From: Bilabrum cf. latius
Lineage: Eukaryota
DNA: 64,000 bases
NCBI GenBank assembly: GCA_965178125.1
Contig: OZ237755.1
Span: 434,001 to 498,000, forward strand
Direction: 5' to 3'
Shown here one piece after another: positions 8,802-40,700 of the stretch. How positions within the stretch are numbered: the first letter of the stretch is position 1; every line of letters begins with the position of its first letter. The notes beneath the pieces are model-generated. The model was not told the origin of the DNA. It saw only the letters and a program-made list of their open reading frames with translations, and ran no database searches. The position numbers and the translations under genes were made by a program.

Positions 8802-8981
8802 GCTTGAGATTTTGAAAAATGTACCAAATACGACCGTGGAGGTTCCGCACCCTCTGTGGACGGAATGGCGCGGCGCCAAGCTAAACACCTGCTTCGCTAA
8901 AAATCCGTACTCTAGCTTCAAAGGATGAGCGGCAGCAGGTCGTATGGCCAGCCTAGAGACCAAATTGTGTCTACATTTGGC

Positions 8982-13223: not shown

Positions 13224-14405
13224 TCACTTGCCCGCATTTAGCTTCTTGGCCCTAGAGCCAGAGGCACCTCTCTCCTGCTCCCTTGGTCGCTTCTTTCCCG
13301 CCCCAGCACCGAAGAATGCAGTCAGCTTCGAGGTGCGTTTCTTAAATCTGAGCCACGTCCTGGCGGATCCAGGCGGAGCTTTCTTTGCCGAAGCGGATCC
13401 TGTGCTGGAGGACTTGATACCTGTCTTTGGCTTCGAGGCGGCAGCAATTTCACTCTTCGATGTTGCCTGTGAGCCGGTCATGCTAGACTCGCCTACCACC
13501 GATGCGCTAGTAGCCGCGAGCAGCCTCCCAAGCGCGGCTTCATCCAGGAACAGATCCATCGCCACATGGTCCGACCACTTCTTGTGCGTGTTGAGCACGT
13601 TGCATCCGCGCACCGCACCTTGGAACACTCTAGGCGACACCATCATGAAGTCGATTCGGAGGCCCATGTTCGTCGCTCTGGCATCCGTTCTCCAGCTCCA
13701 AACCGTGTACTGGTGCTGCGTGGTCGGGTGCAGCAGCCTCCAGCAGTCCACAAAGGGCTGTAGGCTGACCACAGGCCCAGTTGCCGAGGCACCGACCGAG
13801 TTGCTAGAAGCTGACGACGGCGAAGATGATGACGATGACGATGAAACCTTGGGGTCTGACGCACTACTCGCTTGCGTGGACCGCACGGCGCCAAACAGTG
13901 TCTTGCGCTCTGCTTCAACGCATGGCACCAACGCAGCGAGGTCTGGTAGAGGCAGCGATACGCCCCCTGAAGCGATGGGAGGCACCTGAATCTGACCCAC
14001 AGGCAAATAATCAGCGAGAGATGCAGACTTTTCGCTTTGCGTGTGGGTACTCTGCGCGCCAGATGCAGCCGATGCCGCCTTCAAAACCGCACTACTAGGC
14101 TGCTTCGTCGCCTCGACAGGCGCGGCTGGTGATGATAGTACAGCTTGCAAGGCATCAGCCTATTTAAGAGCCGGCTCAGACGTCGGCAGCAGCGGAGGGC
14201 CCATGAGTGAGTCCAGAAATGTAACCTCACCGATAGAGTAGCCTCCGTAGCAGTGCCTGCTCTATCCTGCCTGACTTGTCGGCTGCCACGGAAGCAGCCC
14301 TGCCTTGGCACACAGAACTTCGGGTTCTTTTGATTCGCCGCTAAGGGCAGTGGCAGGCTTGCTGGATGAGGTTGCAGCGATCCCGCTAGTCATACTTGCA
14401 ATCGA

Positions 14406-14437
<32 letters not shown>

Positions 14438-15068
14438 CTGCAGAGGAGCTGCTCACCTCCCTGGCCGCCTGCGCAGTTGACATGGCCTTGCTTCCATCGC
14501 CCCCTCCCTTGCGCTGCACCTCGGGGTGAAGGTCGTTGACGTGGGAGTGTGGGGCGTTGAAGTCACCGAGCAACACCACCTCGTTCCCCGCCAGCTTCTC
14601 CCGAGCAACTGCCTTTCGCAGCAAGGCAAAAAATTCCAGCTTCGCTTCTAGGCGTGGCCGGCCCGACTGCCGCTCACCGCTGTTCGGGGCGTATACGTTT
14701 AGTACTGACAGTCCAGATGAATTCAAATGCGACGGTAGGTTGCACCTAACGATCACGCAACGCCCCTCTCGATCTAGCTCGTGTTGCAGAGGCGCACCGT
14801 CACCTGACGTTGCCACGATTACCCCACGCCGCACGAATGTAGCGACCCCATTCATGCCTTTTTTTGCCAGTGAAAATGACCAGAATGAGTCCCATCCATC
14901 AGGACACGCTACATCCTCAGGTACATCATTTTGAGACGCTTTGGTCTCTTGCAACGCAACTATGTCGGCATTCGTGGCATCAAGCCAGGCCTTGAAGCTG
15001 CCAAAATGCTTCGTCATCAATGGCAGCAACGACATCAGGCTAGCTACATTCCATGACAAGATTCTCAT
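13224..15068 (-). CDS. Exonuclease III / AP endonuclease (EEP family), ~614 aa
   Basis: Motifs MRILSWNVASL, ADIVALQETK, GMNGVATF, EGRCVIV, LNVYAPN, VLLGDFNAPH, FVDCWR, YTVWSWR, GLRIDFMMVS, WSDHV. The two ORF halves are joined across in-frame TAGs at 14262 and 14160. TGA stop at 13224. Confidence 0.92.
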
Positions 15069-15206
15069 CTGCTTGGCTGTCCTGTTTGCTTGTTCATGAC
15101 GGACCGTGAATTCAAAAAGGACGAGACCGGAAGTGAATCTTGCGACGGGATCCTAGTGAGTTACCTGTATGCAATAGGCACCTGTTCGAAACTCCATCGA
15201 GCTTGC

Positions 15207-15271
15207 TTGAACTTCTTGCTTCGGATCGGGCCGTTTGCGCCAAGGTCTTTGAGCTTCTTGCTTCGGATCGG
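15207..15271. repeat. 23-bp direct repeat TTGARCTTCTTGCTTCGGATCGG in a divergent intergenic region
   Basis: Copies at 15207-15229 and 15249-15271, one mismatch, 42-bp period, between the APE ATG (15068, -) and the EGF-GH ATG (15288, +). Confidence 0.85.
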
Positions 15272-15287
15272 ATCCCTAGTGTGCAGT

Positions 15288-16652
15288 ATGAACGGGCTAG
15301 CAAGTCACGTTATCATGATCACCGCAGGCGCAGTTGCAGCCAGCGACTCGAGTACACGCATGTGTTCTTTGAATGGCATCTGGAATCCAAAGGATGGAGC
15401 ATGCTAGTGTGACCCAGGCTGGAAGGGAGGCTCCTGCGCTGAACTCGATCTTGCGCCGGTCCGTGCCAACAGAATGGGCTTAGCGAATGCAAGCAACCCT
15501 ACGTGGGGCGGAACTGCTATATTTGAAGGTAACCGCTGGCACTTAGTTGTCGGGGCCCGAGCTGTGGACACGGGTTCCTACACGAGCGAGAACTATCCGT
15601 GCGACTCCAAAATCGTAAGGGCCCAGACAAATGGCACTGACCCCACGGGACCATGGAGCATTGTGGAAGATATTATACCTCGAGTGAGCTGGGAGCCTGC
15701 CATAGTGAGGGCGCCACGCAAGGCCTTGTTCCGAGCTGGCAGCAATGCGACCAGCGGTCGAGAGCTCCATCCGGACCACAAGGATGACCCGCTGGTGATG
15801 CTCTTCTTCGGCAACCAAAGCTTTAATAAGCCGGAAGTAGGGGCACCGATCTGCTCCATCAATTCCGCGTATCTCACGAACATGACCATGTACTGGACCA
15901 CTAGCCCGAGCGGGAGCGTCGCAGGCCCATGGGCCGCTCCCCGGGAGGTGCGCGGCATGGAGAACAAACTCAACAAGACGGTGCGGATCGCAGGCCGGGG
16001 CACTGTGCTCAAGGAGCCGTGCGCTTGGTACTGCTCCAACGGTAACCCAGGACCTGCATACCACCCGAACGGCACCCTTTTCGCAATCATGCGCTCCGAC
16101 ACATGCGATCAAGCTTGCCAGCAAGGGGAGCACCTGTCGCTGTGGAGAGCTGACGATGGTCCTGGGGGAGAGTGGGTCCTGGTCACTCCGGAGCCTCTGT
16201 TTGGGTGGGGCAATGCCTCCAGCACCACATGCAATGCATCCATAAACTACAATCGCTGCTACCGCAATGAAGATCCTCACCTCTGGATCGACGAGAGGGG
16301 ATGGCACGTGCTCTCCCACAACCAGAATTCCAAGGCATTCGACCAGCGCGGTGGGTACGGCTGGTCCTTGGATGGACTGGAATGGACCTTCGAGACGATG
16401 CTGCTCGCGGATCCGAACGTGTCGGCCTGGGACATCAACGTGCAGCTCTCCAACGGCACTGTGCTTCCTACGGGGCGCCGGCAGCGACCCTCGCTCCTTC
16501 GTGACCCGAACACCGGAAAACCAACCCACCTCATCAACGGCGCAGACCTGCTCAACCGCACCCAGCATGGTGATCCGCCCCCACCGTGGTGCGAGTCGTG
16601 CCACTGGGGAACTGGCATCACCCTGATCCAGCCACTGAGGACTGGCAGCTGA
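15288..16652 (+). CDS. Secreted EGF-like domain + five-bladed beta-propeller glycoside-hydrolase-like protein (GH43/62/32/68/117/130 clan-like), ~454 aa
   Basis: Signal-peptide-like MNGLASHVIMITAGAVAA. EGF-like CSLNG...C[TAG]CDPGWKGGSC with TAG at 15405-15407. Propeller-type motifs WGGTAI, WEPAIV, NPGPAYHPNGT, EDPHLWID, RRQRPSL, PTHLINGA. TGA stop. Confidence 0.7.
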
Positions 16653-16755
16653 CTTGGCATTAGATTATTGTAGCACGTTCGGTTCGTGTAGCTTGAGCAT
16701 GGCAAGAGGTTGTACCCCTGCAATTGATTGTCAAACATACAACAATTACAATGTT

Positions 16756-19700
16756 TCAATCACCCGCAAGAAGATCCGCACCGCGGGACTGCGGCCCAGG
16801 CGCGGGAGCCGGGACAGTCCTACCGGGCACGCGACTGTTCGGGAGAACTGCACCCGCCCTTGGCCCTCGCTGCAGTTGCTATGCACCCGATGGATCGCTC
16901 GCTGACACGGCAGTCATACCCGGCACACTCCGCAGCACGAATGTCTTCCGGCCCTTGCCTTCCTCGGGTTGCTCGGCGCTCTACTGCAAGCCGCCCTGTA
17001 GGTGCTTGCCCATGGCCTGAGCCGCTGCCCGTGACCTGAGCCCAAGCTGCGACACCGCCCGATGGGACGGAGATCCCGACCCACCTGCTCTGGCGAAGCT
17101 GCCTTGCGTATGTCTCTCGTGTGCAATGCGGCCATGCAACAGCCCCAGGCGGCCCGCGTCTTCCGCCGCGGCGTTGTGGCCCGCCTGTCCTGGAGGCGGC
17201 AAGACTGCCGTCCCGCGTGCCGCCGCCACTGCACGAGCGGCACTAGCCTCTGCCGATCGCATAGTGGCATTCTGCGACGAAACGCGCGGCTGGGTGCCTG
17301 CCATCAGGCTGGCAGCAGCTGCAGCACCCGCGAGCCGGGCACCTCCGCTGTCGGAACGGTGGTAATTCCTTTGTGCGTCAAAGTGACCGCTCACCACCCC
17401 AGCCCCAGCTGCACCGTCTGGGTGCGTCATGTCCGCACCGACGAAATACGAGCCAGAGCTGGGCGAGTTGCTCTGGCTGTGCCGGCCAACCCTGCTGTTT
17501 GCGGCTCTCGGAGACCCCGGTTGGCTCGCCCTCTCTCGAGCGCTGGCGGCGCCAGGCCCAAACCCGTGAGGGTCAAGCTCGATCCCGAGCTGCGCTGCCA
17601 TTGCCACCTCCGTGCGGACCCGCGCCGCCACACCGGACGCGCCGACAGGACCGTGCTGCAGCGATGCGCTTGCGTACGCAGGGCGGGTAGGCACATGGCT
17701 CTGCTCGGCGAGCTGATTCACGGCCAGCTAAGAGCTGGTCTGGCTCGCCAGCTGAGCATTCTACCGGATGGTGATACTCTACGATTTGGCGAGTGCTGCC
17801 CTAAGCACCTCGGCAGGGAATGTCCCGTCTGTGGTGAGCAGGTTAGCACCGGGAATTGTGGGCGGCTTCCGGCGAGGCGCCTTGCGGGTATTGGCAAGCT
17901 GGCTGCTGGTCTCCTCGTCGTCGTTGGCATCTTTAGACTTTCTGCGAGGCGCCTTGCGGGTATTGGCAAGCTGGCTGCTGGTCTCCTCGTCGTCGTTGGC
18001 ATCTTCAGACTTCGGGTCGGTTGGCACATCGTCCTGCTTGCTGGCTGCAGGGCTGCTCGGCCGGTCAGCATCGTCGACTTGCGATCCTTTGTCTGCATCG
18101 GCACCTTGGGACTTATCCGCGCCCTTGTCCGTCGGTTCGGCCTCCTCCTTGGACTCGGTCGCGGGGCTCCCTTGCCTGATGATCTCCAGGAGCTTTGAGG
18201 GACGCCTGCGCATCCACGCCTACGGAGAGCCGCTGGACCGGGACCGTGGGGTACTGCTGCTGCTGCTGCTCCTCGATTCCTTGGCGTTCTTGCCTGGCTT
18301 GCTGGCGTCTTGCACCGATTGCTGTGCAGCGACACGCATCGCGACATCTCCAAGGGACCCGAACGCGCCTTGCTTTTGAAGCGCGGTGATCTTCTTCATG
18401 GCGCCGTGCAGCTGCGTCACGCTCTTCTTCCTCTTGATAAGCTTCCCCGAGTCGTTTGCCACCAGCCGGACCTTCTTGAGCAGCGACTTGCGCCTCCTCA
18501 ACCTGCCTCTCGGGCTCTGGCCTCCCTCCGTCCCGTCCGCTGTGCCCACGGACTCACCCGCGTCGCTCGTGCCGCTGAAGCTGCCAGTGGATGCCAGGGA
18601 GACGCCAGTATCCGCCCGGCCACGCCTGCTCTCTACGCGCGGCAACGGCGTGACCACGTCTTCGGCCTGGCCGGTGCTGCCACCAGGCGTCCCCGGCCCG
18701 CTGTTGCCCCCGGGCCCCCCGCACTCCTGTTGAATGTCGGGGCTGGACCTCGTGGACAGCGACACCTCCACTTGGATGGCGCCGAGCTCTGCGTCTGTGG
18801 GCATTGTGCCCGTGCTGACTGGGGCGGGGCGGGGCCTGGGCGGCGGCTGCTACTGCGGTTGCTTTGCGTTGACCGCGTCCCGTGCTTCCGGCTCGCGACC
18901 GTCAGGAGCGTCGACCGGGTCCGCAGTGGAATGCAGTGGCTCTGGGGTCGGCTTGGGCTGGATCCCCGGCGGTGGAGCGGGGCCACCATCAGGGCTGCCG
19001 GTAGCTTCGCCCAGATCCGGCTGCTGCGTACTGCGCTGAGGCGTCGCTTTGGAGCCGACCTCTCGATGGGCCAGCAAAGCTTGGTCGGACGCTACCGGCG
19101 TCGGCCGCGTGGTTGTACCCGGAGGCTGGCCCGCGCCTTCGCTGTCCTAGCCCAAGCCTCGACCGCTTGCACCCGCACCGCTGTCACCTCTGGGGCTCAT
19201 GTTCCTCCGCAGCCGCATGGCCTGGGAGCGAGCCTTGAGCAGCAGCGCATCGGCGGCTGCCTTGGCCGTTTCAAGCTCCGCAGCCCCCTCGTCCTCGACC
19301 TGGTCCTGCTCTCTTTGCTCGTGCTGCTGCTCCTAGCCTTCCTCTCCAACACCTGATGGAGCAACTGCCGCAGCGCGAGTCCCGTCTCTCTGCCGGCCGT
19401 CTCGCGCTGGGTCGACAATCTTTCCACCGGATTCTCTGGGGGCTGGTGCTGCCGCCCGTGGGGGATTTCCATTTCCAGTGCGAGGTGAGGCCGTGCGCTT
19501 GGACGATGGCGACTCCTTCTGTCGGTGCTCTCGCTCCTCCTCCAGGTCACGCCGCAGCGCCACAGACTCGCCCCGCGCGTCAGCCGCACTAGTTGCCGCC
19601 CGCTCTAGCCGCTCCCTGAGTCCGTCCGCCTCCCTTCTGGCCACGTCCCTCTCTAGCCTCGCGTCCTTGGCGTCTGCCCTGGCCGCGTCCAGCTCTTGCT

Positions 19701-20895
19701 TGCACCTCGACAGCTCCGTCTTGAGCCTGTCCACCACCTGCCTGGAGAGCTGCTTGACTCGCTCGAGCAGGCCGGCATCAACCTGCTGCTGCTGCTGCTG
19801 CTGCTGCCGCTGCGGCCCTCCGTCCTCGCTGCTGGTCTGGTCCGTCGTTCTCCCTTCCTCGCGTGCCTGCTGCAGCTGCTGCCTGGTATCGGACAGGTCT
19901 GCTTCCAGATCCGCGGTCCTGCTTTTCGCTTCTTCCAGGGCTCGCTGCAGGGATTTTGAAGCCTCCTGGCGGTCGTCCCTGTCTCGCCGTGCCCGGTCGG
20001 CCCGCGCCTCCAGACGATCGCAATCCGCCTGTAGGGCACTCGATCGGTCCCGCTCGAGCTCCAACGCTCGCCTTAATCGTCGTAGCTCCAATGCATCCCC
20101 GGCGTACCCGTGGGGGGCACCGCTCGCGGATGGAAGGCCGTCGCTGGCTTCCGTGCCAGCGCGTGGCATGGCACGACCAGCGGTCGCTTTCGCTTCCAAC
20201 TCCTGGATTTTCTGCGTAAGCGAGAGGAGGCGTGACGATATAGATTGAGTGGAGCTGAGTAGTATGGAAATCCGTATCACGGCGCCAAGCATTGCATTGC
20301 TCACGGATTGCATAGATGCGTATTCACGCTTGCTCTCCTCGACGAGCCTGCGCAGCTGCATCTTTGCTTGCTTCAGCTGTTTCCGCAGCCGATGTACTTC
20401 CTGCTTGTGTCTAGGAGCAGCTGTGTCACTTTGCTCCAGACCATGCGAAGTTGTTGCGCTCGTATGTCCATGGGTGACACTGTCTCGATCCGCGGACGGC
20501 CGTTGACCAGCAACGCGAGAACTTGCTTGTGGCGAAACACGACTTGATGCTGGACCCAGATGGCCCCTATCTACTGGACCTTCTACTGATGATGCTGCTC
20601 CTGCTCGCCCAGCTCGACTAAACGGCCCCCGTGAGCCAGTAAGCTAGTCTAGGGAAGGCATTGGATTTGCTGCTTGGCCTTTCCGTTCGCCAGCTCCGGA
20701 ATGCACAGAGTCTGATGAAGGCCCCGATCCAACCACCCTTCCCCGCAAACTACTTTCAGCAGAACTCCCGCGAATAGGGAGCTCCAGCTTCCCAATTGCC
20801 AAGGAAACATGATCCTGTGCAGCTTCCGCGATGAGCTTGTCCAGGGTATCAAGCTCGGTAGAATGCTGCGTTTTGATGGATTCTGCTCTCTACAT
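16756..20895 (-). CDS. Hypothetical coiled-coil/low-complexity protein (~1380 aa)
   Basis: Fragments ending 19333, 18850, 18220, 17779 and 16981 are in one frame and joined by TAG. Heptad-rich E/R/Q/L region at about 19500-20400. First TGA at 16756-16758. The start is uncertain: ATG 20895 (followed by TAG) or ATG ~20994. Confidence 0.7.
17872..18012 (-). repeat. Intragenic 72-bp tandem duplication (24-aa unit KS[E/K]DANDDEETSSQLANTRKAPRR)
   Basis: Two near-identical copies starting at 17872 and 17944. Confidence 0.93.
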
Positions 20896-21084
20896 AGTGT
20901 GATTAAGGATATGCAAAACCACTGAGCAAGGAAGGCGCTCAGCGTGGTTGTATATGCAGGGTGCCTTCTTCGACTCATGTAATTCATATTTCATCGCACT
21001 GTGGTGGGTTGTTAACACCTTACAACAATTCTGGCGCTTGCAACTTTTTTATCGTCCGCTGCAGTTACGCCTTCCAGATTAACT

Positions 21085-25898: not shown

Positions 25899-28519
25899 AT
25901 GGAGCCCAATTCGTCAAGAGGATTAGGGTTTTTTGCTCACAACCTTTCGATGGTTGGATTTCCGAACGTTGAGACGGGGTAAGGATTAAAGGGCGAAAGA
26001 AGCCGCTCTTGCTCGCTTTGGCTTGCTCGAGCACACGCTTGACATTGTATCCCCTTTCTGCGTCACGCAGTTCGTATCGTTCTGTGCAAGAGTTGCTGGA
26101 AAACGCAATGGATGCCGTCGAAGCGAGAAGAATTGAATCCTCGCTTCGACAGCATGAGGCCCGGGTATCGATCAGGCTGCAACAGAGCTCGCCGGGCTTC
26201 GTCGATTTGGAAGTCAAGGACATTGGAGAAGGCATGCCACCAACAGATATACCCAGCTTGTGTGGTCAAATTTTCTGCTCCAGCAAGCGCTTCGGCGCAG
26301 CAGAGCTTGCGAAAGAATGTGCGGACGGCAGGCACGGTGGGACGCATGGCATCGGGCTCAAGATGACAATGCTCAACGCTGCACTAAGGGCCCCCGATAT
26401 GCTTACATCGATAACTACTTCTTCAAGTACATCGTTGTCAGATGCTTTGGCCCGCTAGTCCGGGCAAGCGGCAAGACGATGCGGAACGATCGACCTGATA
26501 TCTACGACTGCTACCATGGAGACGGTTGCATGGACGCGGCTTGGACTTGCATCTGTAGGCAGGGCTGGAGGGCATCAAGAGCAGCAAGCCGGAACATTCC
26601 ACAATCCTGCAGAAGTACTTGCGCGAGCGAATCCGTCCATTCTCGTGCTCAAGCAGGCGCACAAGCCCAAGCCGAAAGGCCTCTCGGCTGGCAGTAGCAT
26701 CAGGGCCACGATTCCCGGCAAGGTAGAGCACATGGCAAGATTCTCTACGACATACTTGCAATGCTGCGCCGCGGCAAACAGCCTTCCAGGTCCGTGTCGA
26801 CTTGTGTTGCCGGTGCAGGCTGTCACTGGTTCGGCTGCGGCCGGCACGGCGAGCCCCGAAGACCACAGCACTTGCTTCTCCAACGGTGAAGTAGACAACG
26901 CGGGCGTATTGGCGGCTGGAACTGGCCGTGCAGCGGCGACAGTTAACCAAATAGAGGTACAAGTAGAGGCAATGTGCGTCTTGCGTCCTAGCTCTGGTGC
27001 AGGGGACGCTTCCAAGTCACCGGCAGGTAGCCGGGGCCGAGCTGGTCCAGTCTCTCTCGCCACAGCCAACGCGATGGCCAAGCAGGGCACATTGCATGTG
27101 CGTCAAATCGCCATCGTACGACTCGTTAATGGTCTGCCTGTCCTGTTAGGACCATGCAAAGACGGTGCTGTGCGTGCGAGCATATTCGGATGTGCCACTG
27201 ACACGGGAGCACCCGTAGCAGCAGGCAAGCACTAGTAGGCTGCAGCCACTGCTGCGGCCGGCTCTAGAGGGGCGACAAACCCTGATTTATCCGATGGCCG
27301 TAGCAGCAATGCTGCCCCGCGTGCAGGCCTCAAGCGACGGAGGAACTCGAACAAAGAGGCCAAGCAGGTCCGCTGGTCCCGATTCGGCCTCCGGGTGCGG
27401 CCTGTCGACGCTGGACCTCACGAGGGGGGCGAGGGGCAGGGCGCAAAGGCAGCAACTGGCACGGAAGAAAACGGAGCAACATCGAAGGATGTTCGCAAAG
27501 GAAGCCTATTCGATCTTGTCGAGAGTGGCTTTAGTGGAGTGCTGCGAGGTACCGTGACGGACGCGTGCGACAGGCATGCAGCCAAGGCGGCTTCAGCCGA
27601 TACGCTGTCTCGGCGGGCAGAGCGTCGAATGACAGTGGCATCAGGGGTGAAAATAGGAGCCGACCCAACTGGTACAGTCTCTGCATCCTCACTAGCAGGA
27701 AGCGCGGATAGTGGGGAGCAAGGTGCTGACCAAGAGTCGGCATCGTCCGCTGCAACAGCGAGGGGCAGCCGCCTCCCAGCCTCAGGGTCAGGGTCAGGGT
27801 CAGGGTCAGGGTCAGGGTCAGGGTCAGGGTCAGGGTCAGGGTCAGGGTCAGGGTCAGGGTCAGGGTCAGGGTCAGGGTCAGGGTCAGGGTCAGGGTCGAG
27901 CATCCGAGGCCGCACAGCGCGTCAGCCGGCAGACATTTTGCTTCTTGTCAAGGTCCTTCCCATGCAAGATAGGAGAGCTGTTGCTGAGGGCAGCTCTTCA
28001 GATGCTGCCAGTGAAGGACATGGCACTCAGCAGTCAGAGGTGGTGCCGAGCACGGCCGCCGCCGACCGCAAGGGGGAGGGGACCAGCCGCGCTGCTGCTA
28101 CGGGCACCAGCCGCAATCCAGCACCGGTCCCCCGTCGGTCAAAGGCGGTGAAGTATGCCAACCTTGCAAAGACCTACATCCCCGCCGACGGTCCGACGCT
28201 CGAGGCCATCACTGCAGCCACGGAGGAGGCCATGGGCGGGCTGAAGGCCAAGCTGCCTGACCTGTTCGTGGCAGAGGCAGAGCTCAGCGACAGGGCCACG
28301 CTGGCTCAGCACCTGCCCACAATTTCGAGAGCATTTGGTAGCATACTGGCGGGAGCTCCGCAGTTCATGCGGCATTCGATTTGCCAGAGGCTTCGCGTGG
28401 AAGAGCCCCAAGCAGCGGCGGATGAGCTGCACTCGCTTCTGCTTGGGCAATGCCTGCGAGCTAGAGCTTCCCTCCGGGATGCGGACAAGCGGAGCCGAAA
28501 GCGCTCAAAGATTGACTGA
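25899..28519 (+). CDS. TOP6B: DNA topoisomerase VI subunit B-like GHKL ATPase, ~842 aa
   Basis: Exon 1 25899-25978 (GFFAHNLSMVGF), intron 25979-26070, exon 2 26071-28519. GHKL boxes QELLENAMDA, VKDIGEGM, FCSSK and GTHGIGLK. Transducer-like IVRLVNGLPVL and VKYANLAKTYI. In-frame TAG at 26456 and tandem TAG TAG at 27233-27238. TGA stop. Confidence 0.75.
27782..27895 (+). repeat. Perfect (TCAGGG)19 hexanucleotide repeat encoding (Ser-Gly)19
   Basis: Read directly from the sequence. In frame inside the TOP6B-like CDS. Confidence 0.97.
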
Positions 28520-28683
28520 AGACTGAGACTGATTCCAGCAAGTTGGTGCCGGCCGAAGGAGCAGCCCGTGTGCTCCACTGCAACATTCCGGATCGAGGAT
28601 TGTTGCGGTCCGGCCTTGCTTGCCAGCAAAAACGATGCTTCTCAATACCGCCAAGCCATTTGTGAATTAACTGATTTCATCGC

Positions 28684-31600
28684 ATGGCGATGATATCTGA
28701 TGAAGAGGCCCATGGGCGCCGTGGAAAGCAACATGATTCAAACCACTCCATGCCGCTGCTGCTGCCTCTGTCGCTGGCAAATTCTCGTTTTGCCGCGGCG
28801 ATAAGGTCCAGACTAGAAGATTCATTTGGAATTAAGCACCTCTCGCGGCTACAGCATGAATCTATTGCAGCTGTGGGCAGGATGCAATCTGTTGTGGTGA
28901 ATGCTCCGACAGGTGCCGGTAAATCGCTCGTATCGGAGCTAGCAGTTGCTCAATGTACCCTATGCAGCAAAAAGCTGGCGATTGTGGTAGTGCCATTTGT
29001 GGCGCTTGTATAGGAGCAAGCGCAAAGGCTGAGGGGGATCCTACCGGATGCCGTGAAGGTGCAGACTGTTTCTGGGGCAGCTGCCCAGCCAAGGATTCGA
29101 GCTGGAGAAGCCATCGTTTGCACCATCGAGAGGGCATCATCAATAATCAGTCTCATCATGGGCAAGAAGAAACTGAAACAGCTCGGGCTTGTGGTCGTGG
29201 ATGAGCTACACATGGTAGGCGACCCTCGAAGGGGTCCAAAGCTCGAGGTCCTCCTCGCAAAGCTGCTCATGGCCCGCCGGGCCAATACTCTAGGAGGAGC
29301 AGGAAGCAGCGACGACACAGTAGACCATGTGGACCGGGTGCAGCTCGCCGCAAGCGCTCTGTTCAAAGCACCTGGCACTGCTGCTATGTCGGATGAGGAA
29401 CCACCTGCCCCTGGGGCGGGGACGGGGGCGGACCAAAAATCCTCCTCGCACCCTGCTGCCACTGAAACAGAACCTTTAGCAGCTTCCCAGCGTCCCGATC
29501 AAGATGCTATTTAGATTGTCGGGCTCTCTGCCACGATGCCCAACCGCGAGACCATCGCCTCATGGCTGGGTGCAATCCTAGTCCCTGCAGCAGGTGCACC
29601 CCCGGTGGCTCGACCGGTGCGCCTGACCGAATACGTCGTGCTCGCGGGAGACGGGTTGTAGCCAATGGTACGCGCAGGAAGTCTACCGAACGCAAGTGGC
29701 GCTAGGCACGGCTAGGCAGCAGCACCAAGGCAGCTTCCCGCCGCAGACACTGGCACTGGTAAAGCAGCCAAGCGCTCCATGCCACGAACAACACCCGCAC
29801 GGAAAGGCAACGGCTGGGGTATGCAAGTGCTTAAGCTAACAGAGGTGGTACAGCTCCAAGCTAGCGGTGGGAGGGCGAGTGGACGCAGGAAAATGCCTCC
29901 CCCCAGAAGGATGATCGCATGTAAGGAGCTCTCGGAGCAGGTGGGTCGCAACCCGACCCTCCCCATGGAGGTGCAGGGCCTCCTCCATGACCTGGATAAA
30001 GATGGATGGATGCGAGTGACGCTGTTTGAGCTGCTTCAGGATAGACGGGTCGTGATTTTCTGCTCCAATCCCAGCCAGACCACCAGCGCGGCTCGCAGCT
30101 TGGGCAGGGTGCTCGCTGCCCTCGAGCGGTAGAGTTATGCATCGCCAGGTGCAGGGGCCGCACAGCCCCAGGGAGCGGTTTTGCCCACTTCAGTACCGAA
30201 ACCATCACTGGCAAGCACTGCAGCCTCGTCATCGTCCGGAAATTCGATGGATACTTCGGCCTACTCGAGCGCGAGCCAGGCCATGCGAGGGCTAGCACGC
30301 AGCGATGCGGCAGCTCGGTTCGGGACCACAATGCAGGACCCAGTCACGGCTGCATAGCTATGGAGTCGATACCGCAAGGCGCACAGACAGGCCGCCGATC
30401 GAGCTTTAGCACAGGTGCTTTGCAGATCGGCGCAGCCGGTACCGCGGGACCGGCAACAGCTGCTAGAGCTGGGCGTGGGCGTGCACAACGGGGAGCTGGG
30501 AGACGATCAGAGAGAGGCGATCGAGACGTGCTTCAAGGAGGGCCAGGTCAGATGCCTGATCGCCACATCCACGGTATCTGCGGGCGTAAATCTTCCCGCC
30601 GACACGGTTGTGGTGCGTTGCCCATCCATGCCCACTGAGGCCGGGATTCGCCCGATCAGCACGGAGAGGTATCTCCAGATGGTCGGCAGGGCAGGGAGAC
30701 AAGGACTCAGCACGGAGGGTCGAAGCTACCTGATCCCGTTTCGGGGAAAGTGCCCCACAGACTTTGCGTCGTGCGTTTTGGCTGCACGAAAATGGTCGCA
30801 GGGGAAGCCTGTTGTCGAGAACGTATCTGCTGTGGCACGAGCGTCGACAGGGTAGTGGCGTGGCGATTGGAGCCAGGTGTGCGGCCTTATAGACAGACTG
30901 TTTGTGCTGCGTGGCATGACCCCGGTCGAAAGCGGGCTGGATGGCCCTCAGTCTGCATCCGCGGGCTCGCGGTCGGGCAGCTCCTCCATGCGTCGCCACT
31001 CGGTTGCATCGCCCAAGGCAGGGCCCGGGTCTCCTGCTGTGGCAGTGGATGAGGTCGAGGTTGGTCTGGCGCTGCACCTCCTCGAACTGATTGCTGCGGG
31101 CGTTGTGGAAACCACAGCTGACTGCAACGCATTCTTGCAGTCAACACTACTGCACGCACAGCGGCCTGCGGATGCGCAGCGCTGCCTGGCCCGGTCATTG
31201 GATTTCCTGCTGTCGTATCAGTTCGCCATTCCAGTGGCTCTGCCAGCCGCAACTACGGAAGGTGTCGCTGTAGCAGCAGCAGGCGGGAGTCATACTGGCG
31301 CTGAATAGTCACCATCAGCGCCGGCGGGTGCTGACAGGAAGTTCGTGATATGTGCCACGCGGCTTGGGCATGCTTGCGCCTCGAGTGGGCTGCCTCCGCT
31401 GGCCACGATTCGGGTTGCGGAAGAGCTTTCCGAGTGCATGCAGGTAGGGATTCCTCCGGCTAGTGATGTTTTCTGCCTGTTCATTCTGCTGGGCCAGTGC
31501 GAGCTGGTGCTGCGCAACGCTGGCAGGGACGCGGTGATCAAGGCCGCCAAGAGGATGTGTCAGAGTGCCCGCCGCAAGGCAGAGAGTGCGCTGGCATCGT

Positions 31601-33414
31601 GGGAACGAGGGAGAGTATCCCTGCAGGTGCCAGCGATTGCTGGCGCCGAGCATCTGGACGCCATTCGTGGAATGGACGGAAGGTTCACAATTGGTGCTCA
31701 ATTCATGGCTTCATTTTTAGTAGACGGGGCATTGCGGCTGCTGCGCGTGCCGAGCGTGGCATCAGCGTAGACTCCGCTCGCTTCAGCTAGGAAAGGAACC
31801 AGCGCCCAGGTGGCGATGGAACCAGATGAGAGTAGCCCAGCTGACAGTGAGAGGCAGGCGGGCCCTGATTAGTCGTCGTCGTCTTCAGCTTCGGACGCTG
31901 AGAATGTGCGCAGTAAAGCAGAGGGTGATGTGATGCGGCACCGCTGGGAGCCCGCCTCGATGGAGAACGCAGCACGGCATGCCAGGGATCGCCCGTTCCA
32001 CGCTACCTCGGTGTTTGCACCTAGGAGCAGCTACCAAGCCAGGCTGTATCAGGTGCGATATTTTTTTGCCGAGCTTGTGCACCAGCTGACGCAAGGTGCG
32101 GACCCATTCGCCCTGTGCGACCGCTGGGGCTTGCCGCGAGGACTGCTGTCGAAGCTATGGCATGACCTGTCCACTAGCTCTCGATAGGTGCTGCAGGTTG
32201 CCAAGGGACTTGGATATGACTTGCTGCATGCCGCATTGAGTCGCATGAATGGCCGGCTAAGTAAAGGCGCGGTTGGGCCCCAGCTAACCTTGCTGCGGTA
32301 GCTCCCATCGCTGCGTCGGCACTTCGCTTCCTAGCTGGCCAAAGCTGGAATTAAGGATGCTGCTGGCGTGCTCGAGCAGCCCGTAGAGAAACTAGCAGAG
32401 ATTCTCCGGCGCGCGCTTCCTTACGCCTCTGCGGCAACGCCTGCTGCTGGCCCACCGGGAGTAGGCCAGTCAGTTTCCGGTGGCTAGTCAGCTGGGTGGA
32501 CTACCTCTGCCACCGCAGCTGCTACTTCGAGTAGTACTGCAGGAAGTTCTAACCGCAAAGCAGGTGGCGATGATGTCTCCCCCCAGACAGCAGGGGGTGA
32601 TGGGGCAGTTGTGTCTCGCGACACCGAGGGCCAGATGTGGGAGCAGCTAGTGCAGCTGGCGTGTATGCTGCAGACAGAAGCCAAGCAGTTTGCCAGCAGG
32701 CGAGCAAAGCTAGGCATAGATATGTCAGTTCACTACCAGGATGAAGACCCCGGGAGACGCCCGATGCCCGGTGGAGACTCCAGGGGCCAGGCACGGCCGG
32801 ATACGGGCAGTGGCAGAGATGTGGGTGCAGCGGTGGCAGACATGAATGCGGCGAGAGCTAGGTGGCTGGCAGCTCGCCAAAAACAGAACCCCACAGCTTC
32901 AAAGCAAGCCGAAGTTGCACAGCCGCTCACGGGTGCGGGTCCTAGCCAGGTTGCTCGCCCCGTCGAAGCACTTGCTCGGGGTTCTAGTTCCCGCGCTCCT
33001 TTGAATGCCTCCAGAATCGCCAAACAGGCTGGATTGGATGTGCTGCTGCATAGACTGACAAGTTTGCCCGTGGAATAGTCACATGGTGCTGCAAGAGTGG
33101 CAGCACCTCAGGGTAGTGCTCAGCACCCCGGGATGCAATCGAGCCAAAGCCACGGCACACCGGCCGGAGCTGTCCAGCCACCCATGGATGAAGATGGTGG
33201 CAGTGAGATTCGTGCATTGGAGGCAGGTAGACCGGCTACGGCGCGCGGCGCCAAGCGGCCCCGAGCATAGAGCCCGAGGGACTAGGGTGCGATGAGCCTG
33301 CAGTTTGGTGCGCCGGGCGCCGAGTCAGATGGCGCGGGGCCACTTGGCGCGGGTACCGAAGAAAGCATGAGCTCCATAGATCCGACTGAGCTGCTAGCTC
33401 TTCTAGATGACTGA
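28684..33414 (+). CDS. HELQ: HELQ / POLQ-helicase-like Ski2-family DExH helicase, ~1576 aa, no polymerase domain
   Basis: One frame, with fragments joined by TAG only. Motifs APTGAGKS, VVPFVALV[TAG]E, IVCTIERA, VVVDELHMVGDPRRG, I[TAG]IVGLSATMPN, RPVRLTEY, GVGVHNGEL, IATSTVSAGVNLPA, YLQMVGRAGRQG, then winged-helix and HhH-like segments. TGA at 33412-33414. Confidence 0.88.
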
Positions 33415-33663
33415 GACGGGGCTGAGTACCGGCTGAGAGCGGCCCCGTCGCAGGCAGCAGGTGCGTGCTGCCACTGGCAGTGCGTGCTCTCTCGCAGGTT
33501 CCGGTTTCAAGTGCAATGCTCAGCACGATGGTTCAGGAGCACCATTTCCCCACTCTGATTCCATATATTCAGAATAGAACTGCATAGAACCATTATTTTT
33601 GCATTCATCATTAGGCTACTAAGTTTAACGCGGTGGCCACTGGCACTGGCAGGTGTACAAGTA

Positions 33664-36147
33664 ATGCTCAACGTAGTTCATTACAACATGTGCCAGATGA
33701 CTGCAATTTCACTCGCATTGTTGTGGGCTTCTACAACTCAATGTAAATTAGTTCCCCGAATCGATGGTCTAGCATCCAGTAGTGTCTTAGCAGAAGTATG
33801 GCCAGGGAGCGTTCTGCAACAAGAGCATCACCCGTACCACCGCGTACAGCCGATAGTACTCTGCCATGATCCTCTATTTGGCGCACTAAAAGGAGATCGA
33901 CTAGCTGGCCCTCCAGATGATATACTGCCCAATTGCAGCTGGAGGCTCGGGGATCCTGATCCAAGTGGCGCGCCAAGCCCTGCGGTCCACTGTGTGCCTT
34001 CCGCTGGCCGTCGTTGGGTGTTTCACGACGTTTTTGCTCGAGACGGACAGCTGTTTGCCATTATGCCGAGCTATCTTCGGGTACCAGCCAGGTTGGATCA
34101 ACTGGCCATCGACGTGCGCATAGCTGGTCGACAAGGCGAACACAGCTTGAAGCACCGCGAATGGCAGGCGCTCCCCGATCCTGAGACTGTCAGAGCATCA
34201 AATAGGAATGAGCGCAGGATCAACGCTGTTCGTGTTTTGAGGTGGACTCTCCCCCGGAAATTTCGCTCGGAGCTCGGGAGCGGGTACCTGCACCTCCGCA
34301 TATAGTACGCATTCGAAACCACGTGGCTGCAGGTGTGGCACCAAGAGTTCTTGCCAAGGCGAAGCTCCACTTGGTCAGGCCCGAGTCCTAGTTCACGTGA
34401 GAATGGCTCACGAGGGCTACAGTCGTATTCGGTTCATGAATTGGACTGTGTGGAGTACCCGGGTTGGAACTGCATATGGCCACGCTTGTCACCATTAGGG
34501 AACGTGCATGGGAACGCGACAGCCACCACTAGCACACAAAGAGAGATGCAGAAGCAACAGCACACTGAACCTGGTCCGAAATCATTGCAAGCAAGCGGCC
34601 ACAAGCCCCATCGAATCATTGGCATGACAATGGTTCTACTTGAAGACAGAGAAAGATACATGTCTGACTGGGTGGAATACCACGGCGCTCGTGGGGTGGA
34701 GGCGGTAGTGGCATACAGAAACGACAACGAGTGGATTCAAGGCGCCTGTCTCGCGCTGTAGGCCGTTTCGTTTTATTGCAGCTCGCTACAGCCCAACACT
34801 GGGGCGGGAAACCAGGCAAGGACTGGCCAAGTCGGCTAGCCGAGCAGCCGAACCCTGTGTGACCGATTGCGGGGAGTCAAGCAGTGTCACCCCATGGCAC
34901 AGCAAATGAACGGATCTCCAACCACGGTGCTGGAGCTGTCATGGCCATTCCGTTCGTTCAATTCGTATGCTCATGACAAAGGCGCGTTCATTGGCGAATC
35001 CCAGCCGCACGCCCAGCAGCATTTCTTGTTCAAGTATGGCAAGCCTCTTTGCGAGTGGACACTTTATCTCGACGTGGATGAGTACCTGAACGTGTAGTCA
35101 TTACTAAGCCTCATTGAATAGGCAGACTAGAGGGCCCGCATGGCTAACAAGCTCTTGCCCGGCTCGATCGAGTTCCACAACAGATTTGCGGTGGCCTCGC
35201 TTGGGAGCGCGGTGTCGACTGAGTTCGAGACTTGCCCCCCAGAAAACCTTCTACTGAACCCGGCTATGCCAATGGCACGCGGTCTTGGCACACCTTGGGA
35301 TGCGCAAGTGCGATTAGGATTTCAAAATGCGGATCTGCGGATCGAATGGGTGTCAGCGACGGCACCACCTGCATCCCCCATGCACGCCGACCTGCGCACT
35401 AGGATCCTCGATGGAGCACGCACTCGAGGAAAAGCGAGGACATAGGACGCTTCTATGTAGCAGCATACGATCCTACATGAGCCTTTTGTGGCAAGCGCCA
35501 CGCTATCAGCAGCAAGCAACGATGGGGTGCAGATGGATCCGTCGATCGCCGCACCCAATGCCGGCAGATCTGATCGACGACTAGTTGCGGAGGGCTACAA
35601 GAGATCAAAGTACCTCGCCAGAACTGACCTGATGGTGTGGGCTGGCATGCATCACGCAGACTTTTGGGACGGTTCTAGTCCTGCCATGGAACAGTGGAGG
35701 GGCGGACACTTCGGTGCTGGCATATGCACCGCGAGCAGCGGGCTGCGCACGGAGCCTGGTGACGCAGTTGAGTGCCAAGGCGTGGGTGATAGCCTCAACG
35801 CTGCCAAGTTCACCCCAGCTGTGAATGCTATGGAACTGCAGGAAGAGGCTGTCATGCTGCATTTTCTGGAGCAGAGCACCCTGGCGAAATTCGCGCAGCA
35901 CGCCCTGAGCGCTCGCATGCCAATCTCCGAGCGCGCAAGCATCCATACCGGTACCCAGCCGATCAGCGAGCTGGATGGAATGGGCGCACTGCCTAGTCGT
36001 AATGTTTCTGGTTGTGAGAGGAGGGTCCGGCAGGCCCTGTTCCTTCGTGGGATGGACCCTGGATGGGGCTGGTCCGAGTCTAGCCCGCTGCAGATGCAGA
36101 CCATGCTCTGGCCTCCGACGCGGCCTGTCGCCGCGCTCGCGCCATGA
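33664..36147 (+). CDS. Glycosyltransferase family 92 / DUF23-like protein, ~827 aa
   Basis: Five same-frame fragments joined by TAG. Hydrophobic N-terminus, YMSDWVEYHGARGVEAVVAYRND, and a DxD motif in WTLYLDVDEYL. TGA stop. Confidence 0.7.
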
Positions 36148-36953
36148 CACGAATGGGTGGTAATGTGTGAATATAGGGACGAATCTAATGCGTACGTTTC
36201 GGTCGCTCATCGGAATCCTCGCTGGCCAACAGCTGCTCGAGTTTCCGCGAAATGCGCTCAATGGCAATGCGTCTAGTAGCCCGACCCTCTGCGCATGAGA
36301 GCGGCCGTGAAACGCAGTGAACCTGCATGGGCACATTGCGTGCTGCAGCGTAGTAAAGAAAGTAACGGACTCTGTGCTGGAGCCTCGATCGATTTAGCTT
36401 CCCGGGCCAAGTCATGACGGGGCGGTGCAGCGGAACATCATTACGGTGCGGGTATGTATTATGCGAGCCGCGCGGCGGGGCCGGCCACACCCAGCAGGAT
36501 ATACAGCCAAACGAAAATAGCAATTGCGGTCCGTAGCTTAAATGCTTTCATCCTGGCTAGCAATATCCATGGCTCCACCGAGCGGCCTGCTCTGCTCAGG
36601 GACGCATATGAGAGGAGGAGAACCCTTGAGCGGGCTCAAATCTTGATGTGCCGTCCGTGAAAAGAAAATGTTGGCAGCATGGCGCCATAGATCTTCTTGA
36701 AGTTGAAGAATGTAAGGTATGCAATTCAAACACATGAACACCACTGCTCAAGCCGAAGCCGTGGTGCTAGCGAGCCGCACGTGGTTCTGCCGCTATCCAA
36801 CCATGAGCAACCAAGGTGAGGGAGATCGAAAAAGTGATACAGATGCCTGCATTAGAAAATGCAATGCACCTCTAAACCTCTACGATATTACCCACACAGC
36901 TGGGCCTAGGTGGGAAGCGATCCAGACCAGCACGTGCTGCACTGCGATAGTGT

Positions 36954-37528
36954 TCACAACGGGAACTGTGCGTCGACACAGAACACGTTTGAGTTCTGGG
37001 AGCTTTCAGTCCCGATCATCGATACATTGTAGTTCCCACTGGGCACTGCAGACGGCAGGTTCAGCGCCAAGTGGATGTGCTCCGAGGCACTTGCAGTTGT
37101 TGGGCAACCAAGCCCCTCCACAGTGATGCTGCCGAACCCAAGCGGTAGCGTAATCTTTGAGGTGCCGCAAATGTTGCAAGAGTCAGAGTACAAGTTGACC
37201 CCATCAAGGGATACAGCAAGCTGGATCTTGCCTGCAGACACGACCTCGGTCATCGTACCGTTCGCATATAGGTTTGCTGGTTGGCCCTTGGCAGGAGCAG
37301 TTGGGGACAGGTTGAGACCTGTCAGCTTCATCCCACCACTACCACAATCGATAATAGTGGCTGCAGCTGGCGACTCCCCTCGGAGGTTGGCTGCCACTGC
37401 GTAGACTAGAGGAATGCTTGAAAGAATTGCAATTCTTTCCGGGCAACTCAGAGAGGAACACAGGGTCTTGGGCCAAACTTACTCGTAGAAGCCGCAAGCA
37501 GTAGCATAGATGCAGCAATGGCAATCAT
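36954..37528 (-). CDS. ML (MD-2-related lipid-recognition / NPC2-like) domain protein, ~162 aa
   Basis: Signal-peptide exon 37528-37483 (MIAIAASMLLLAAST), intron 37482-37397 (GTAAG...CGCAG), exon 37396-36954. Cys pattern DCG, NIC, GCP, FCV and LPSAVPSGNY fit ML domains. No internal TAG. TGA stop. Confidence 0.85.
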
Positions 37529-37724
37529 CTTTCGACTTGCTTATCCTTTGTAGCCAGTATGAATGGCTCTTCATTGTCGAATCGTCGATCAAGTGATTCA
37601 TTTGTACCGTGTAGTTAATTTTTTTCTAGAAAAAATCCGTTTCGTTAAATTGAGGAGTCAAGCAACAAGGAAACAGTTTGTTTTGTAATGGCACTGATAT
37701 ATCATGTGTAATTGAGGTGCATCG

Positions 37725-40700
37725 ATGAGCAGCTACGAGGACGACGACGGTAAGTCGGTGTCTGCAGCAGCATGTATGATCACTGGGGAGGAGGGTGCGA
37801 TTCTAACCAATTTGAGACTTGGCTAGAATAAGAAGTGGTTTGCATCTCGACTATCGGAGAATGGCGTTGCGCTCGTACTGCAAGCGAAGGGTGATGGCTA
37901 GGTGTTGCGTTCTAGAGCTAACGCCTACACAATTAAGCGACGCAAGGCACGGCAAGCTTCGCAGAGGAAAGCGATGGATGAGTACACTCGAAGTATAATG
38001 ACAGAAGAGAGCGATGTTGGACTGCTGGGACTCGAAGCTGCTAAGGCAGGTTCGCTGCAGTGGGCCGGACAGGAGGGCCCAATCCAGCCGTGGGCTGCGC
38101 AGAAGTACAAAGGTTGGAAAGCAAAAGGAGGGCAGAGCATCCCATGCATGCGGTGGTTCCTAGCGCGTTCTATTCTTGCTCCACACGGCGTCAGCTGCGC
38201 ACCAACTCAAGACGGAACTCGGCACACGGCCACGGCCGGCCCGAACACGCCAGCCATCAAAGCGTCCAAGATCGCCTGGCACCGCAAGGCAATGACCGAC
38301 AGCCAGCTGCGCAAGCTGCAGAAAGGCCCGAAATCCCTGCGAGAGCAACTCGTCCGTGGAGCATACGCAGTGGCGGACCGTGATGGCGACGTGTGCCCCC
38401 GCCTCAGGCGCGTCCTCCTCCCCCTGATGCGCGTGTGGCTCCCCGACGAAGACCCCACGCCTCTGCGGTGGGATGTGACGGATTCCGACGATGAATAGGA
38501 AGAAAAGTAGCAGTCTACGGCTAGCGGCAGCCCTGTGACACGTATCACTGGTACAGGTGCTGGTGCAGGTGCAGGTGCTGGTGCAGGTGCAGGTGCTGGT
38601 GCAGGTGCAGGTGCAGGTGCTGGTGCTGGTGCAGGTGCTGGTGCTGGTGCAGGTGCTGGTGCTGGTGCTGGTGCTGGTGCCAAGGCGGTCTAGCGCAGCA
38701 GCAACGTGCTGCATGGAGTGGACGTATCATCCGTATCCAAGGCTCGGCTGGCCCAGCTGCCGCGAGACTCCGCGCTCGGCGCGGTCAGATATGCGGGCAT
38801 GCTGGTTTAGTCTAGGATGACTGCGGAAGAGGTGGCCAAGGAGGAGAAATAGAAACACAAGCGGCTGATGCGGACGAGCGCTGCTGTCAGGGAAAAGGAG
38901 AGAGTGCGCATCCGCGATGCAAGGATCGCTGCGAGGAAGCAAGGATAGAGGGGGAGGCTGCAAGGAGCGGGCGGGTCCGCAGCGGTGGGAGGCGCGCCGT
39001 CTGGCGACGATGGCGAGCAGCACAAACCGCGTGGCAGGCAGGTATTCCTGGAACCTACCGATGGATTTAGACTGCCTGGAAGGCTGCGATGGACCACAAA
39101 ACTTGCGTCTGCGGAGGAAATTGCTGCATCGGGACATCCAGCCAAGGCGTAGGCGGGCGGGGCCGCTGCGAAGGGAAGCGAAGCGCGCGAGGAGCACGAG
39201 CTTAGGGAAGCAGTCAGCGGCTGGATCGTGCCACCGAGAGCTGTCCGCGCCTCCTCAATACCTTCAAGTGCCGCGGCTGACTCTGCAGCAGCTGCTGTCG
39301 AGGGACCGGACAAGAAAGGCAGTAGCAAAGGCGGCAAAGAGACGCCGTCCAAGACGAACCGAAAGCCTCGATCAACTAGCAGACCGAGAGCAGGAGACAA
39401 GCCTGCCAAACGGTCTCAATCTCGGCGCAGGGGCAAGAAGGGTGACTCTGTACCCTGGACGAGGAAGCACCCGCCAGTGCCACGATTGCGCAGAAGGGCA
39501 GACTCGTTCGGAGGATACCCGTCTAGTATTTTCAATGAAGGCAGGAGGGTGCTTCCAGAATCGCTGTCCAAAGCATTGGATGCCAAGGAGGACGAATTGA
39601 ACGAGAAGAGGGCGAGGAAGGCGCGGGAAGAGGAGGAGCTCACCAGAGGTAGCGGCGCTGCGGCGGCCATTGCCAGACGGAAGGCACGGCGAGCAGCAGC
39701 TGCCAAGGCAAACGGCGAGGCAGGACCACCCATGGATCCGATCGATGGGATACAGGCTGGTAAGCGACTGGCCGAGGTGAGTGGAGACCGCAGGCAGCGC
39801 AGGCAGCTGCTGGCTGGCGCGACCAATGCCGGGCCATCTGACGTCTTCGGTTCTCTGGGCCTCGACTTCCGCAAGTCGCGGGCAATCAGCCCGGGCAGGG
39901 GCAAGAAGTTCGAAACGTTTTCGGTCAGAGGCGAGCGCCTCGGGGCGGTTGATCTCTCCATCCTTGCGACGTACCTGCCCCAGCACGCGCCGAGGCTGCG
40001 CAAGCTGGACGCGAGCTGGTGCCCGAAATTCGACGCCCCACGGTTCAGGGCACTTGAAGAGAGCCTATCGATTGCCGCGAGACATCAACTGCAGGAGCTG
40101 GACGTGTCCTACTGCCGCATGCGCAACCTAGGGGCTGCGATCCTGGCCAGGTCACTGTGCGGCAGCGAGAGTCTCCGCGTACTGCGTGCAACGGGGTGTC
40201 TGTTGGGGGCCTCGGAGGCTCCTGCCATCGCGGCCATCATGCTCTCATGCCCCAATATAGAGGAGATGCACCTGGCTCAGAACGACTTCAGGCCGTCTGG
40301 TGCGCGCAGCATTGAGGCAGCTGTGATGCGAGTGGCTGCCAGGCAGGCGGGAGCCGCAGGCAGATCATCACGCAGCCGAGTAGGAAGCAGGCCAGTGTCA
40401 AGGCAAAGGGTTCGCACATCGGCTGCTCATGCAGACCAGCAACCGCCGGTCGGTAGCTCCGCAGCTGGTGCGAGCTCCACAGCGCCGCAGAGTGAGCCCG
40501 AACAAGGCAAAGAGGATGCAGCGGGGTCAGGGGGAAGTGCGGTCAAATAGCAATAGCCAGGTGCTGTCACCGCTAGCTCTGGTGCAGGGAGCGATGATTC
40601 GGTGCCGGCTGCAACCAGCACAGGGGGCCAGACAGATGCGGGCACGGAGCCAGCCGCCGTGCGTGGCCGTGCAAGGGTCGCCACTCGGCGCATGCAGCAG

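Follow-up and report, generated by a model that had tools for sequence, protein, structure and literature searches.

Which message does a TAG codon carry in a gene that contains it seventeen times in frame, while neither of the other two standard stop codons occurs inside? This question is raised by a helicase gene of the Hel308/HELQ/POLQ type in a 64,000-nucleotide stretch of contig OZ237755.1 (Bilabrum cf. latius, assembly GCA_965178125.1); we refer to this whole stretch, at its full length, as the window. Judging from sequence comparisons, the nuclear code of this eukaryote very probably reads UAG as glutamine (Gln), with UGA as the main terminator and UAA as a rare one. The best explanation is a reassignment of UAG only, equal in content to NCBI table 15 as used by Iotanema spirale.

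A helicase gene with 17 in-frame TAG codons

The original prediction started from two TAG codons in a HELQ-like helicase frame, and direct reading bore out both their coordinates and their common frame. The first lies in GTA TAG GAG at 29008-29016 (TAG at 29011-29013, codon 113; VPFVALV-x-EQ, motif Ia region), the second in ATT TAG ATT GTC GGG CTC TCT GCC ACG ATG CCC AAC from 29509 (TAG at 29512-29514, codon 280; AI-x-IVGLSAT, just before motif III). Both belong to a single plus-strand frame at 28675-33414, with its first ATG at 28684 and a TGA stop at 33412-33414, which is open for 1579 codons if TAG is read as sense and contains no TAA and no TGA. Under the standard code, the helicase stretch is split into pieces of 112-197 codons. 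With an off-frame rate of 1.6-2.6 TGA plus TAA per 100 codons, the probability that such a 1579-codon frame arises by chance is about e^-24 or less. The other 15 TAGs, spread over 29659-33285 on the plus strand, are codons 329, 347, 486, 561, 727, 878, 1032, 1066, 1171, 1209, 1220, 1271, 1468, 1532 and 1537 (first bases, computed from the codon numbers: 29659, 29713, 30130, 30355, 30853, 31306, 31768, 31870, 32185, 32299, 32332, 32485, 33076, 33268 and 33283).

Translated in this way, the gene looks like an ordinary, apparently intact Hel308/HELQ/POLQ-type helicase gene. The product matches the Pfam families DEAD (DEAD/ResIII; 8.7e-20, residues 58-198) and Helicase_C (2e-11, residues 598-677), both RecA-like domains are present, and motifs I (APTGAGKS), II (DELH), III (SAT) and VI (QMVGRAGR) are intact in the translation. 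Among solved structures, the human POLQ helicase domain ranks first (2e-48), ahead of SLH1, ASCC3, Brr2 and archaeal Hel308. As to the winged-helix/ratchet and C-terminal helix-hairpin-helix domains expected in a Hel308 architecture, HTH_61 reached 19.8 bits, below its cut-off of 24.3, and residues 1127-1254 show a weak match to POLQ domain 5 (6 bits) in a region that is well conserved with the orthologue described below. No Pfam match to a DNA polymerase A domain was obtained in the 1579-residue product, the C-terminal 300 residues of which are of low complexity; we therefore file it as a stand-alone HELQ/Hel308-like helicase and not as POLQ, in agreement with its initial assignment. The named best matches come from an amoebozoan transcriptome, insects and plants at 35-39% identity, and a volvocine alga matches with 42% identity across 15% of the query.

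TAG is a sense codon throughout the window

Reading TAG as sense yields about 18 long open reading frames (ORFs) with hardly any overlap in the window, on both strands, the longest of 3074 codons, whereas the longest ORF under the standard code has 509 codons. Across the long ORFs (19,467 codons), the reading frame contains 166 TAG, no TGA and no TAA, compared with 174 TAG, 263 TGA and 40 TAA in one of the other frames of the same ORFs and 192 TAG, 429 TGA and 80 TAA in the other. In long genes TAG is not avoided in frame and is as common there as off-frame, while TGA and TAA are excluded. The frames that carry TAG include some with recognizable homologues, namely those of the helicase and of SNF2, APE1-like, UFD1 and NPC1-like products. 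TAG is a sense codon, and this is a property of the genome rather than a peculiarity of the helicase gene.

TAA as sense or stop codon

The 17 gene ends in the window comprise 16 TGA, one TAA and no TAG. This predominance of TGA would also suit the classical code of NCBI table 6, in which TAA encodes Gln as well, TGA is the sole stop and the rarity of TAA follows from the GC-richness of the DNA. Both genes on the orthologous contig L001, introduced below, likewise end in TGA, and the sole TAA end, belonging to the gene at 60089-63901 (minus strand, 15 in-frame TAG), is followed by CGA CAG CGA TGA (60077-60091 with the TAA, minus strand), so that it might be read through to a back-up TGA four codons downstream.

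The usage of Gln codons argues otherwise. Canonical Gln codons number 257 CAA and 601 CAG (CAA 30% of 858), and if TAA also specified Gln, about 71 TAA would be expected in frame beside the 166 TAG in the ~19,500 codons; none was observed. Applying table 6 lengthens the real ORFs by short 5′ stretches only and merges one same-frame pair, 13224-15479 and 15543-16664 (minus strand). The off-frame TAA:TGA ratio of 120:692 predicts about 2.5 TAA ends among 17, with which the single one seen is in agreement. We consider table 6 usage improbable; the best reading is that TGA is the major stop codon and TAA probably a minor one, the part concerning TAA being taken from a single gene.

The residue encoded by TAG

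In all searches TAG was translated as X, which kept the query from being biased towards Gln. A HMMER search with helicase residues 30-1229 against 1.84 billion representatives returned 11,207 proteins at E ≤ 0.001; columns were tabulated from the best 150 of these together with 18 proteins of another search, re-aligned to the query with phmmer. The column at TAG-280 holds Q in 86 of 92 sequences, the rest being R (3), K, M and T (1 each). This upholds one of the two conserved Gln positions that had been proposed at the outset, together with the preference for Gln over Leu, Tyr and Glu, each of which is absent from this column (0/92) and which occur 0, 0 and 1 times, respectively, among the 16 orthologue sites described below. 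The column at TAG-1209 is mixed (E 12, R 9, Q 5, others; n = 45). Apart from TAG-113, TAG-1171 and TAG-1220, which are taken up further below, the remaining helicase TAGs are in inserted segments to which hardly any homologues, or none, align. In the NPC1-like gene, compared with solved structures, two TAG columns are variable (E or V; K or L) and uninformative.

Closer comparisons were provided by short proteins, 81-95% identical to parts of the window products, from run-derived and ENA contigs. They came from the helicase HMMER search and from two word-index searches with SNF2 (at least 3 and at least 4 proteins; low-complexity words filled the 8000 candidates). Evidently, these are pieces of ORFs of a sister organism that had been predicted with the standard code. 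Of the nine fragments, six (P0020, P0021, P0176, P0177, P0202 and P0204) stop exactly one residue short of a window TAG, and the relative therefore has a standard-code stop at the same codons. Over 1311 aligned pairs, the nine fragments are 87.7% identical to the window products and keep canonical Gln in 44 of 51 cases; P0203 (70% identical, more distant) as well as P0028 and P0116 (from the organism of L001) were excluded from this set. Opposite window TAGs, the relative has Q five times, E once and P once. The Q residues face helicase TAG-280 (fragment P0022) and SNF2 TAG codons 2050, 2573, 2909 and 2982 (fragments among P0176, P0177, P0202 and P0204). The SNF2 gene supplies six comparisons in total, namely four Q, one P and one single-residue gap, the last within DQxQG at TAG-491. 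With likelihoods derived from the substitution counts of the same alignments, the log10 likelihood of this outcome is -5.0 with TAG as Gln, compared with -10.4 (His), -11.1 (Glu) and less than -16 for every remaining residue, so that Gln exceeds each competitor by a factor of more than 10^5. Both E and P, as found opposite TAG, are one base away from CAG. Standard-code annotation shatters genes here and in the relatives, and the public proteins are fragments of 87-263 residues ending at TAG.

A scan of metagenome contigs yielded a more distant orthologue on L001 (6691 bases) and on the near-identical L002, which differ at a single position in 3090 bases, outside the TAG codons. The gene order on L001 is that of the window: the 3′ part of the HATPase gene is followed by a full-length helicase orthologue at 1711-6660 (1649 codons, 14 in-frame TAG, 47% identity overall). 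None of these 14 TAGs coincides with the 17 of the window, whereas the closer relative shares TAG positions, as the six fragment ends indicate; the turnover between TAG and CAG is therefore fast relative to the divergence at 47% identity. Considering TAGs of either sequence as well aligned if at least 8 of 16 flanking residues were identical and at most one gap was present, we obtained nine sites, opposite which stand Q four times and F, M, A, G and R once each. Canonical Gln matches itself at a rate of 0.49 in the same context, so Q at four of nine sites is what Gln codons do. Log10 likelihoods again placed Gln first (-11.35), ahead of Met (-12.83) and Arg (-13.73). For individual window TAGs, L001, which carries the nearest full-length orthologue, has Q opposite codons 113 and 280, Q opposite codon 1171 (L001/P0028) and R opposite codon 561. 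Pooling both relatives, Q occurs at 9 of 16 orthologue sites and every other residue at most once; the summed log10 likelihoods are -16.4 for Gln, -24.7 for His and -27.0 for Glu, putting Gln ahead of His by about 8 log10 units. The two related organisms thus share the in-frame use of TAG.

Signals from within the window point in the same direction and are weak on their own. Up to a distance of three positions from TAG, no residue is as strongly enriched as Q (1.54-fold, 67 observed), which clusters with itself to a similar degree (1.67), and TAG occurs inside runs of CAG/CAA, as in GAA TAG CAG CAG CAG CAG of the UFD1 gene and CAG TAG CAG of another gene. The likelihood of the neighbour profile fails to separate Q from R (-2675.4 versus -2675.0).

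Could TAG instead specify Glu, His, Leu, Tyr, Lys or a non-standard amino acid, including pyrrolysine? A glutamate opposite TAG-561 in a close-relative fragment and several distant columns dominated by R, M or A might be cited for this, and a non-standard amino acid would be invisible to comparison. The pooled orthologue sites with their likelihoods speak against it, as do the TAG-280 column and the distance of a single base between CAG and the codons for E and P, and we judge another residue slightly less probable still than the table 6 code. The assignment of Gln to UAG that was made at first has found support in the TAG-280 column, the close-relative fragments, L001, the enrichment of Q among neighbours and the CAG/CAA runs.

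TAG at gene ends

In Condylostoma, karyorelicts and Blastocrithidia, stop codons are context-dependent, and TAG might accordingly encode Gln inside genes of the window and yet terminate some of them. The gene ends were deduced from ORFs, and a TAG situated shortly ahead of a TGA might be the true stop; in three genes, 12, 15 and 28 codons separate the last TAG from the end of the frame. In the helicase gene, two TAGs are located 43 and 48 codons ahead of the stop, and they are read through, because the C-terminal motif ELLALLD, conserved in the L001 orthologue, comes after them. TAG is as common in frame as off-frame, and no gene needs a TAG end. A context-dependent code is therefore about as improbable as a residue other than Gln.

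Independent copies of the locus

Seven rows from three studies contain the stretch. Contigs of runs X1 (possibly the assembly's own source, with a contig of more than 200 kb containing the window), X5 and X7 (both from a second study) and X6 (from a third) show zero listed base differences over 27900-38500. TAG-280 at 29512 is unchanged in X5 (29088-32754) and X7 (29234-30661), with no other letter in either, and TAG-113 at 29011 is covered by X1 only among the listed pieces. The only indel rows, at 33467-33472, stem from short partial matches of other contigs. Since contigs of several studies are identical, the TAGs are not errors of one assembly.

Neighbouring genes differ widely in their read depth in X6, with values from about 1 to 304 and the maximum over the ML-domain gene (304 in the contig at 36697-37289, against 1-6 on adjoining genes). 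This depth would fit a highly expressed mRNA if X6 were RNA, in which case X6 would also speak against editing; X6 is rated as probably DNA. That the TAGs are not translated as written, owing to mRNA editing to CAG, dead genes or assembly errors, is the least probable of the alternatives, as the frames are interrupted by TAG only and never by TAA or TGA, a pattern that decay would not yield, contigs of three studies agree, two related organisms carry TAGs of their own at partly the same and partly other positions, and X6, RNA-like in its depth though probably DNA, keeps at least five TAGs of the gene at 33559-36147 unaltered.

Two further contigs, of depth 500 (X5) and 168 (X7), touch the window by matches of 24-25 bases only, at 28055-28079 and 31006-31029, and then diverge. 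Most likely, they belong to another abundant organism and do not represent a rearranged locus.

Weighing the glutamine reading

A number of observations weigh against UAG being a Gln codon in a code with UGA and UAA as terminators. Just one TAG, codon 280, falls into a deeply conserved column, so that the deep comparison provides a single informative position. The second position for which conserved Gln had been claimed, TAG-113 in motif Ia, proved to be variable (R 57, A 19, E 19, Q 18, K 10, S 9, T 7, H 4, others; n = 160), TAG-1171 faces M in 53 of 62 sequences, and at TAG-1220 A (20) and L (9) lead over others (n = 62). Tabulating the residues opposite each TAG, the check suggested together with the original prediction, gave Gln at codon 280 and most often at the relatives' sites, but columns dominated by R, M and A at codons 113, 1171 and 1220. 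In the close relative, fragment P0025, which is 94% identical, has E opposite helicase TAG-561, and P stands opposite SNF2 TAG-341. Evidence for TAA as a stop comes from a single gene, in which TGA follows after four codons. The gene ends counted here are ORF ends, of which only those of the helicase and HATPase genes are backed by the orthologue's end. None of the seven rows holding the stretch in the three studies is on record as RNA, and ARAGORN found no tRNA genes in the window, L001 or L002.

With these points included, we still consider UAG = Gln very probable. Its decoder would be a tRNA-Gln carrying the anticodon CUA, a single base change from tRNA-Gln(CUG), and eRF1 would have lost its recognition of UAG. 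It is to such a tRNA-Gln(CUA) that a TAG-only code would point: UAA may not have been dragged along because the CUA anticodon reads UAG and not UAA. For suppressor tRNAs, anticodon CUA is described as reading UAG only, while UUA reads UAG too by wobble (PMC11687900).

Gene content of the window

The window is eukaryotic nuclear DNA, with a GC content of 57-65% (about 60% overall), a GT-AG intron and genes for SNF2, UFD1, NPC1-like, ML-domain and POLQ/HELQ-type helicase proteins; further products include an APE1-like nuclease, ankyrin proteins and leucine-rich repeat (LRR) proteins. Rfam families gave no match at gathering thresholds, and for the APE1-like domain the ESM Atlas yielded the family name and nothing beyond it. 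The SNF2-domain gene at 3-9224 (minus strand; Pfam SNF2-rel_dom, 1.4e-25) has 3074 codons in the window, with its 3′ end beyond it, and 39 in-frame TAG. Upstream of the helicase gene lies the HATPase_c protein gene (25973-28519, plus strand; 3 in-frame TAG, TGA stop), the orthologue of which precedes the helicase in L001 too. A small ML-domain (NPC2-like) ORF at 36954-37478 (minus strand; Pfam, 2.9e-13) is free of TAG and ends in TGA. The NPC1-like gene of the Patched family has exons at 56736-57982 and 54467-56582 (minus strand), separated by a probable 153-nt spliceosomal intron (GTGAGC...TCGCAG, 56583-56735) that contains in-frame TGA and TAA; the intron was assigned because the Pfam Patched-SSD profile resumes across the gap (from position 103 to 102) and the splice sites are readable.

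The minus-strand ORF at 15543-16664, which ends in TAA, was tried as a gene and rejected: no family matched it, its coding score was -0.007, and the opposite strand is protein-like. The product of the overlapping plus-strand ORF at 15057-16652 resembles a secreted protein, with an EGF-like match and many N-x-S/T sites, and the one TAG of this ORF lies inside the C-x-C of the EGF-like motif. The minus-strand ORF resembles a spurious antisense ORF such as occurs in GC-rich DNA.

The window proteins abound throughout in Ala (14.6%), Ser, Gly and Arg and contain long low-complexity inserts. Coding repeats of the dinucleotide type give rise to a (Gly-Ser)n run in the HATPase protein (27782-27897) and a (Gly-Ala)n run in an LRR protein (about 38560-38700). 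A (Gly-Arg)n run is present in the L001 helicase (at about 2700-2750 of L001), and the window helicase is without a run there. The 1430-residue product of the gene at 16756-21048 (minus strand), for which no family match was found, contains an exact tandem duplication of a 23-residue segment, KDANDDEETSSQLANTRKAPRRK, at residues ~1000-1050.

Comparison with known genetic codes

NCBI table 6 is used by ciliates, Dasycladales, hexamitin diplomonads and oxymonads. With these organisms the window shares TAG as a Gln codon and TGA as the working stop; unlike in them, TAA is absent in frame where about 71 would be expected. The macronuclear DNA of ciliates of the phyllopharyngean class is AT-rich and highly fragmented. 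Two phyllopharyngean ciliates, Hartmannula sinica and Trochilia petrani, are described as reading UAG as Gln and preferring UAA as terminator, and a tRNA-Sup(CUA) has been proposed for them (PMC11687900). As far as this description extends, the window resembles them in a UAG-only reassignment to Gln, with UAG widely used as a sense codon, and differs in that its stop is TGA and that its 64 kb hold about 18 genes within a contig of more than 200 kb.

A further close counterpart is Iotanema spirale (Metamonada, Fornicata), presented as the first described case of UAG = Gln with UAA and UGA as stops, with 204 in-frame UAG in 126 genes and, among 119 gene ends, 104 UAA and 15 UGA (PMC5304391). In both, UAG alone has become a Gln codon, UAA never occurs in frame and UAG is never an evident terminator, on the Iotanema side within the data given in that account. 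The same calibration argument applies as well, Gln being about as frequent opposite UAG as it is opposite canonical Gln codons (PMC5304391). Differences concern the terminators, which are TGA at 16 of 17 ends in the window and mostly UAA in Iotanema, and the GC content of 60% in the window, the proteins of which had no named relative above about 40% identity in the searches. Recoding of TAG to Gln is also described for bacteriophages with code 15, for instance crAss-like phages (PMC9523058). Codon and new meaning are the same there, but according to that source phage late genes in bacterial hosts are concerned, as opposed to the intron-bearing eukaryotic DNA analyzed here.

In the searched literature, supplementary tables excepted, we found no description of a GC-rich, non-ciliate, TGA-terminating eukaryote with UAG = Gln. 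Codes that split UAG from UAA are described as rare; among the published cases found, UAG encodes Leu in one rhizarian and three ciliate taxa and Gln in Iotanema and two ciliates, and one ciliate uses UAA for Lys and UAG for Glu (PMC5304391, PMC11687900, PMC10553269). Such codes are of interest for the question of whether a common mechanism ties the two codons together, and a further case would offer independent evidence of how eRF1 and a tRNA(CUA) can keep UAG apart from UAA. Its particular value lies in GC-rich, TGA-terminating DNA available as long contigs and in relatives at two depths of divergence. We tentatively entertain, without giving it the better chances, the view that a so far unrecognized clade, unrelated to Iotanema and the ciliates and with at least two relatives known from environmental or run-derived contigs (~88% and ~47% protein identity), reassigned UAG independently and, in contrast to all UAG-only cases described, terminates almost exclusively with UGA and hardly uses UAA. 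As it stands, the window represents a further case of the rare but known code in which UAG alone encodes Gln, here with the opposite preference among terminators, in GC-rich DNA and on long multi-gene contigs.

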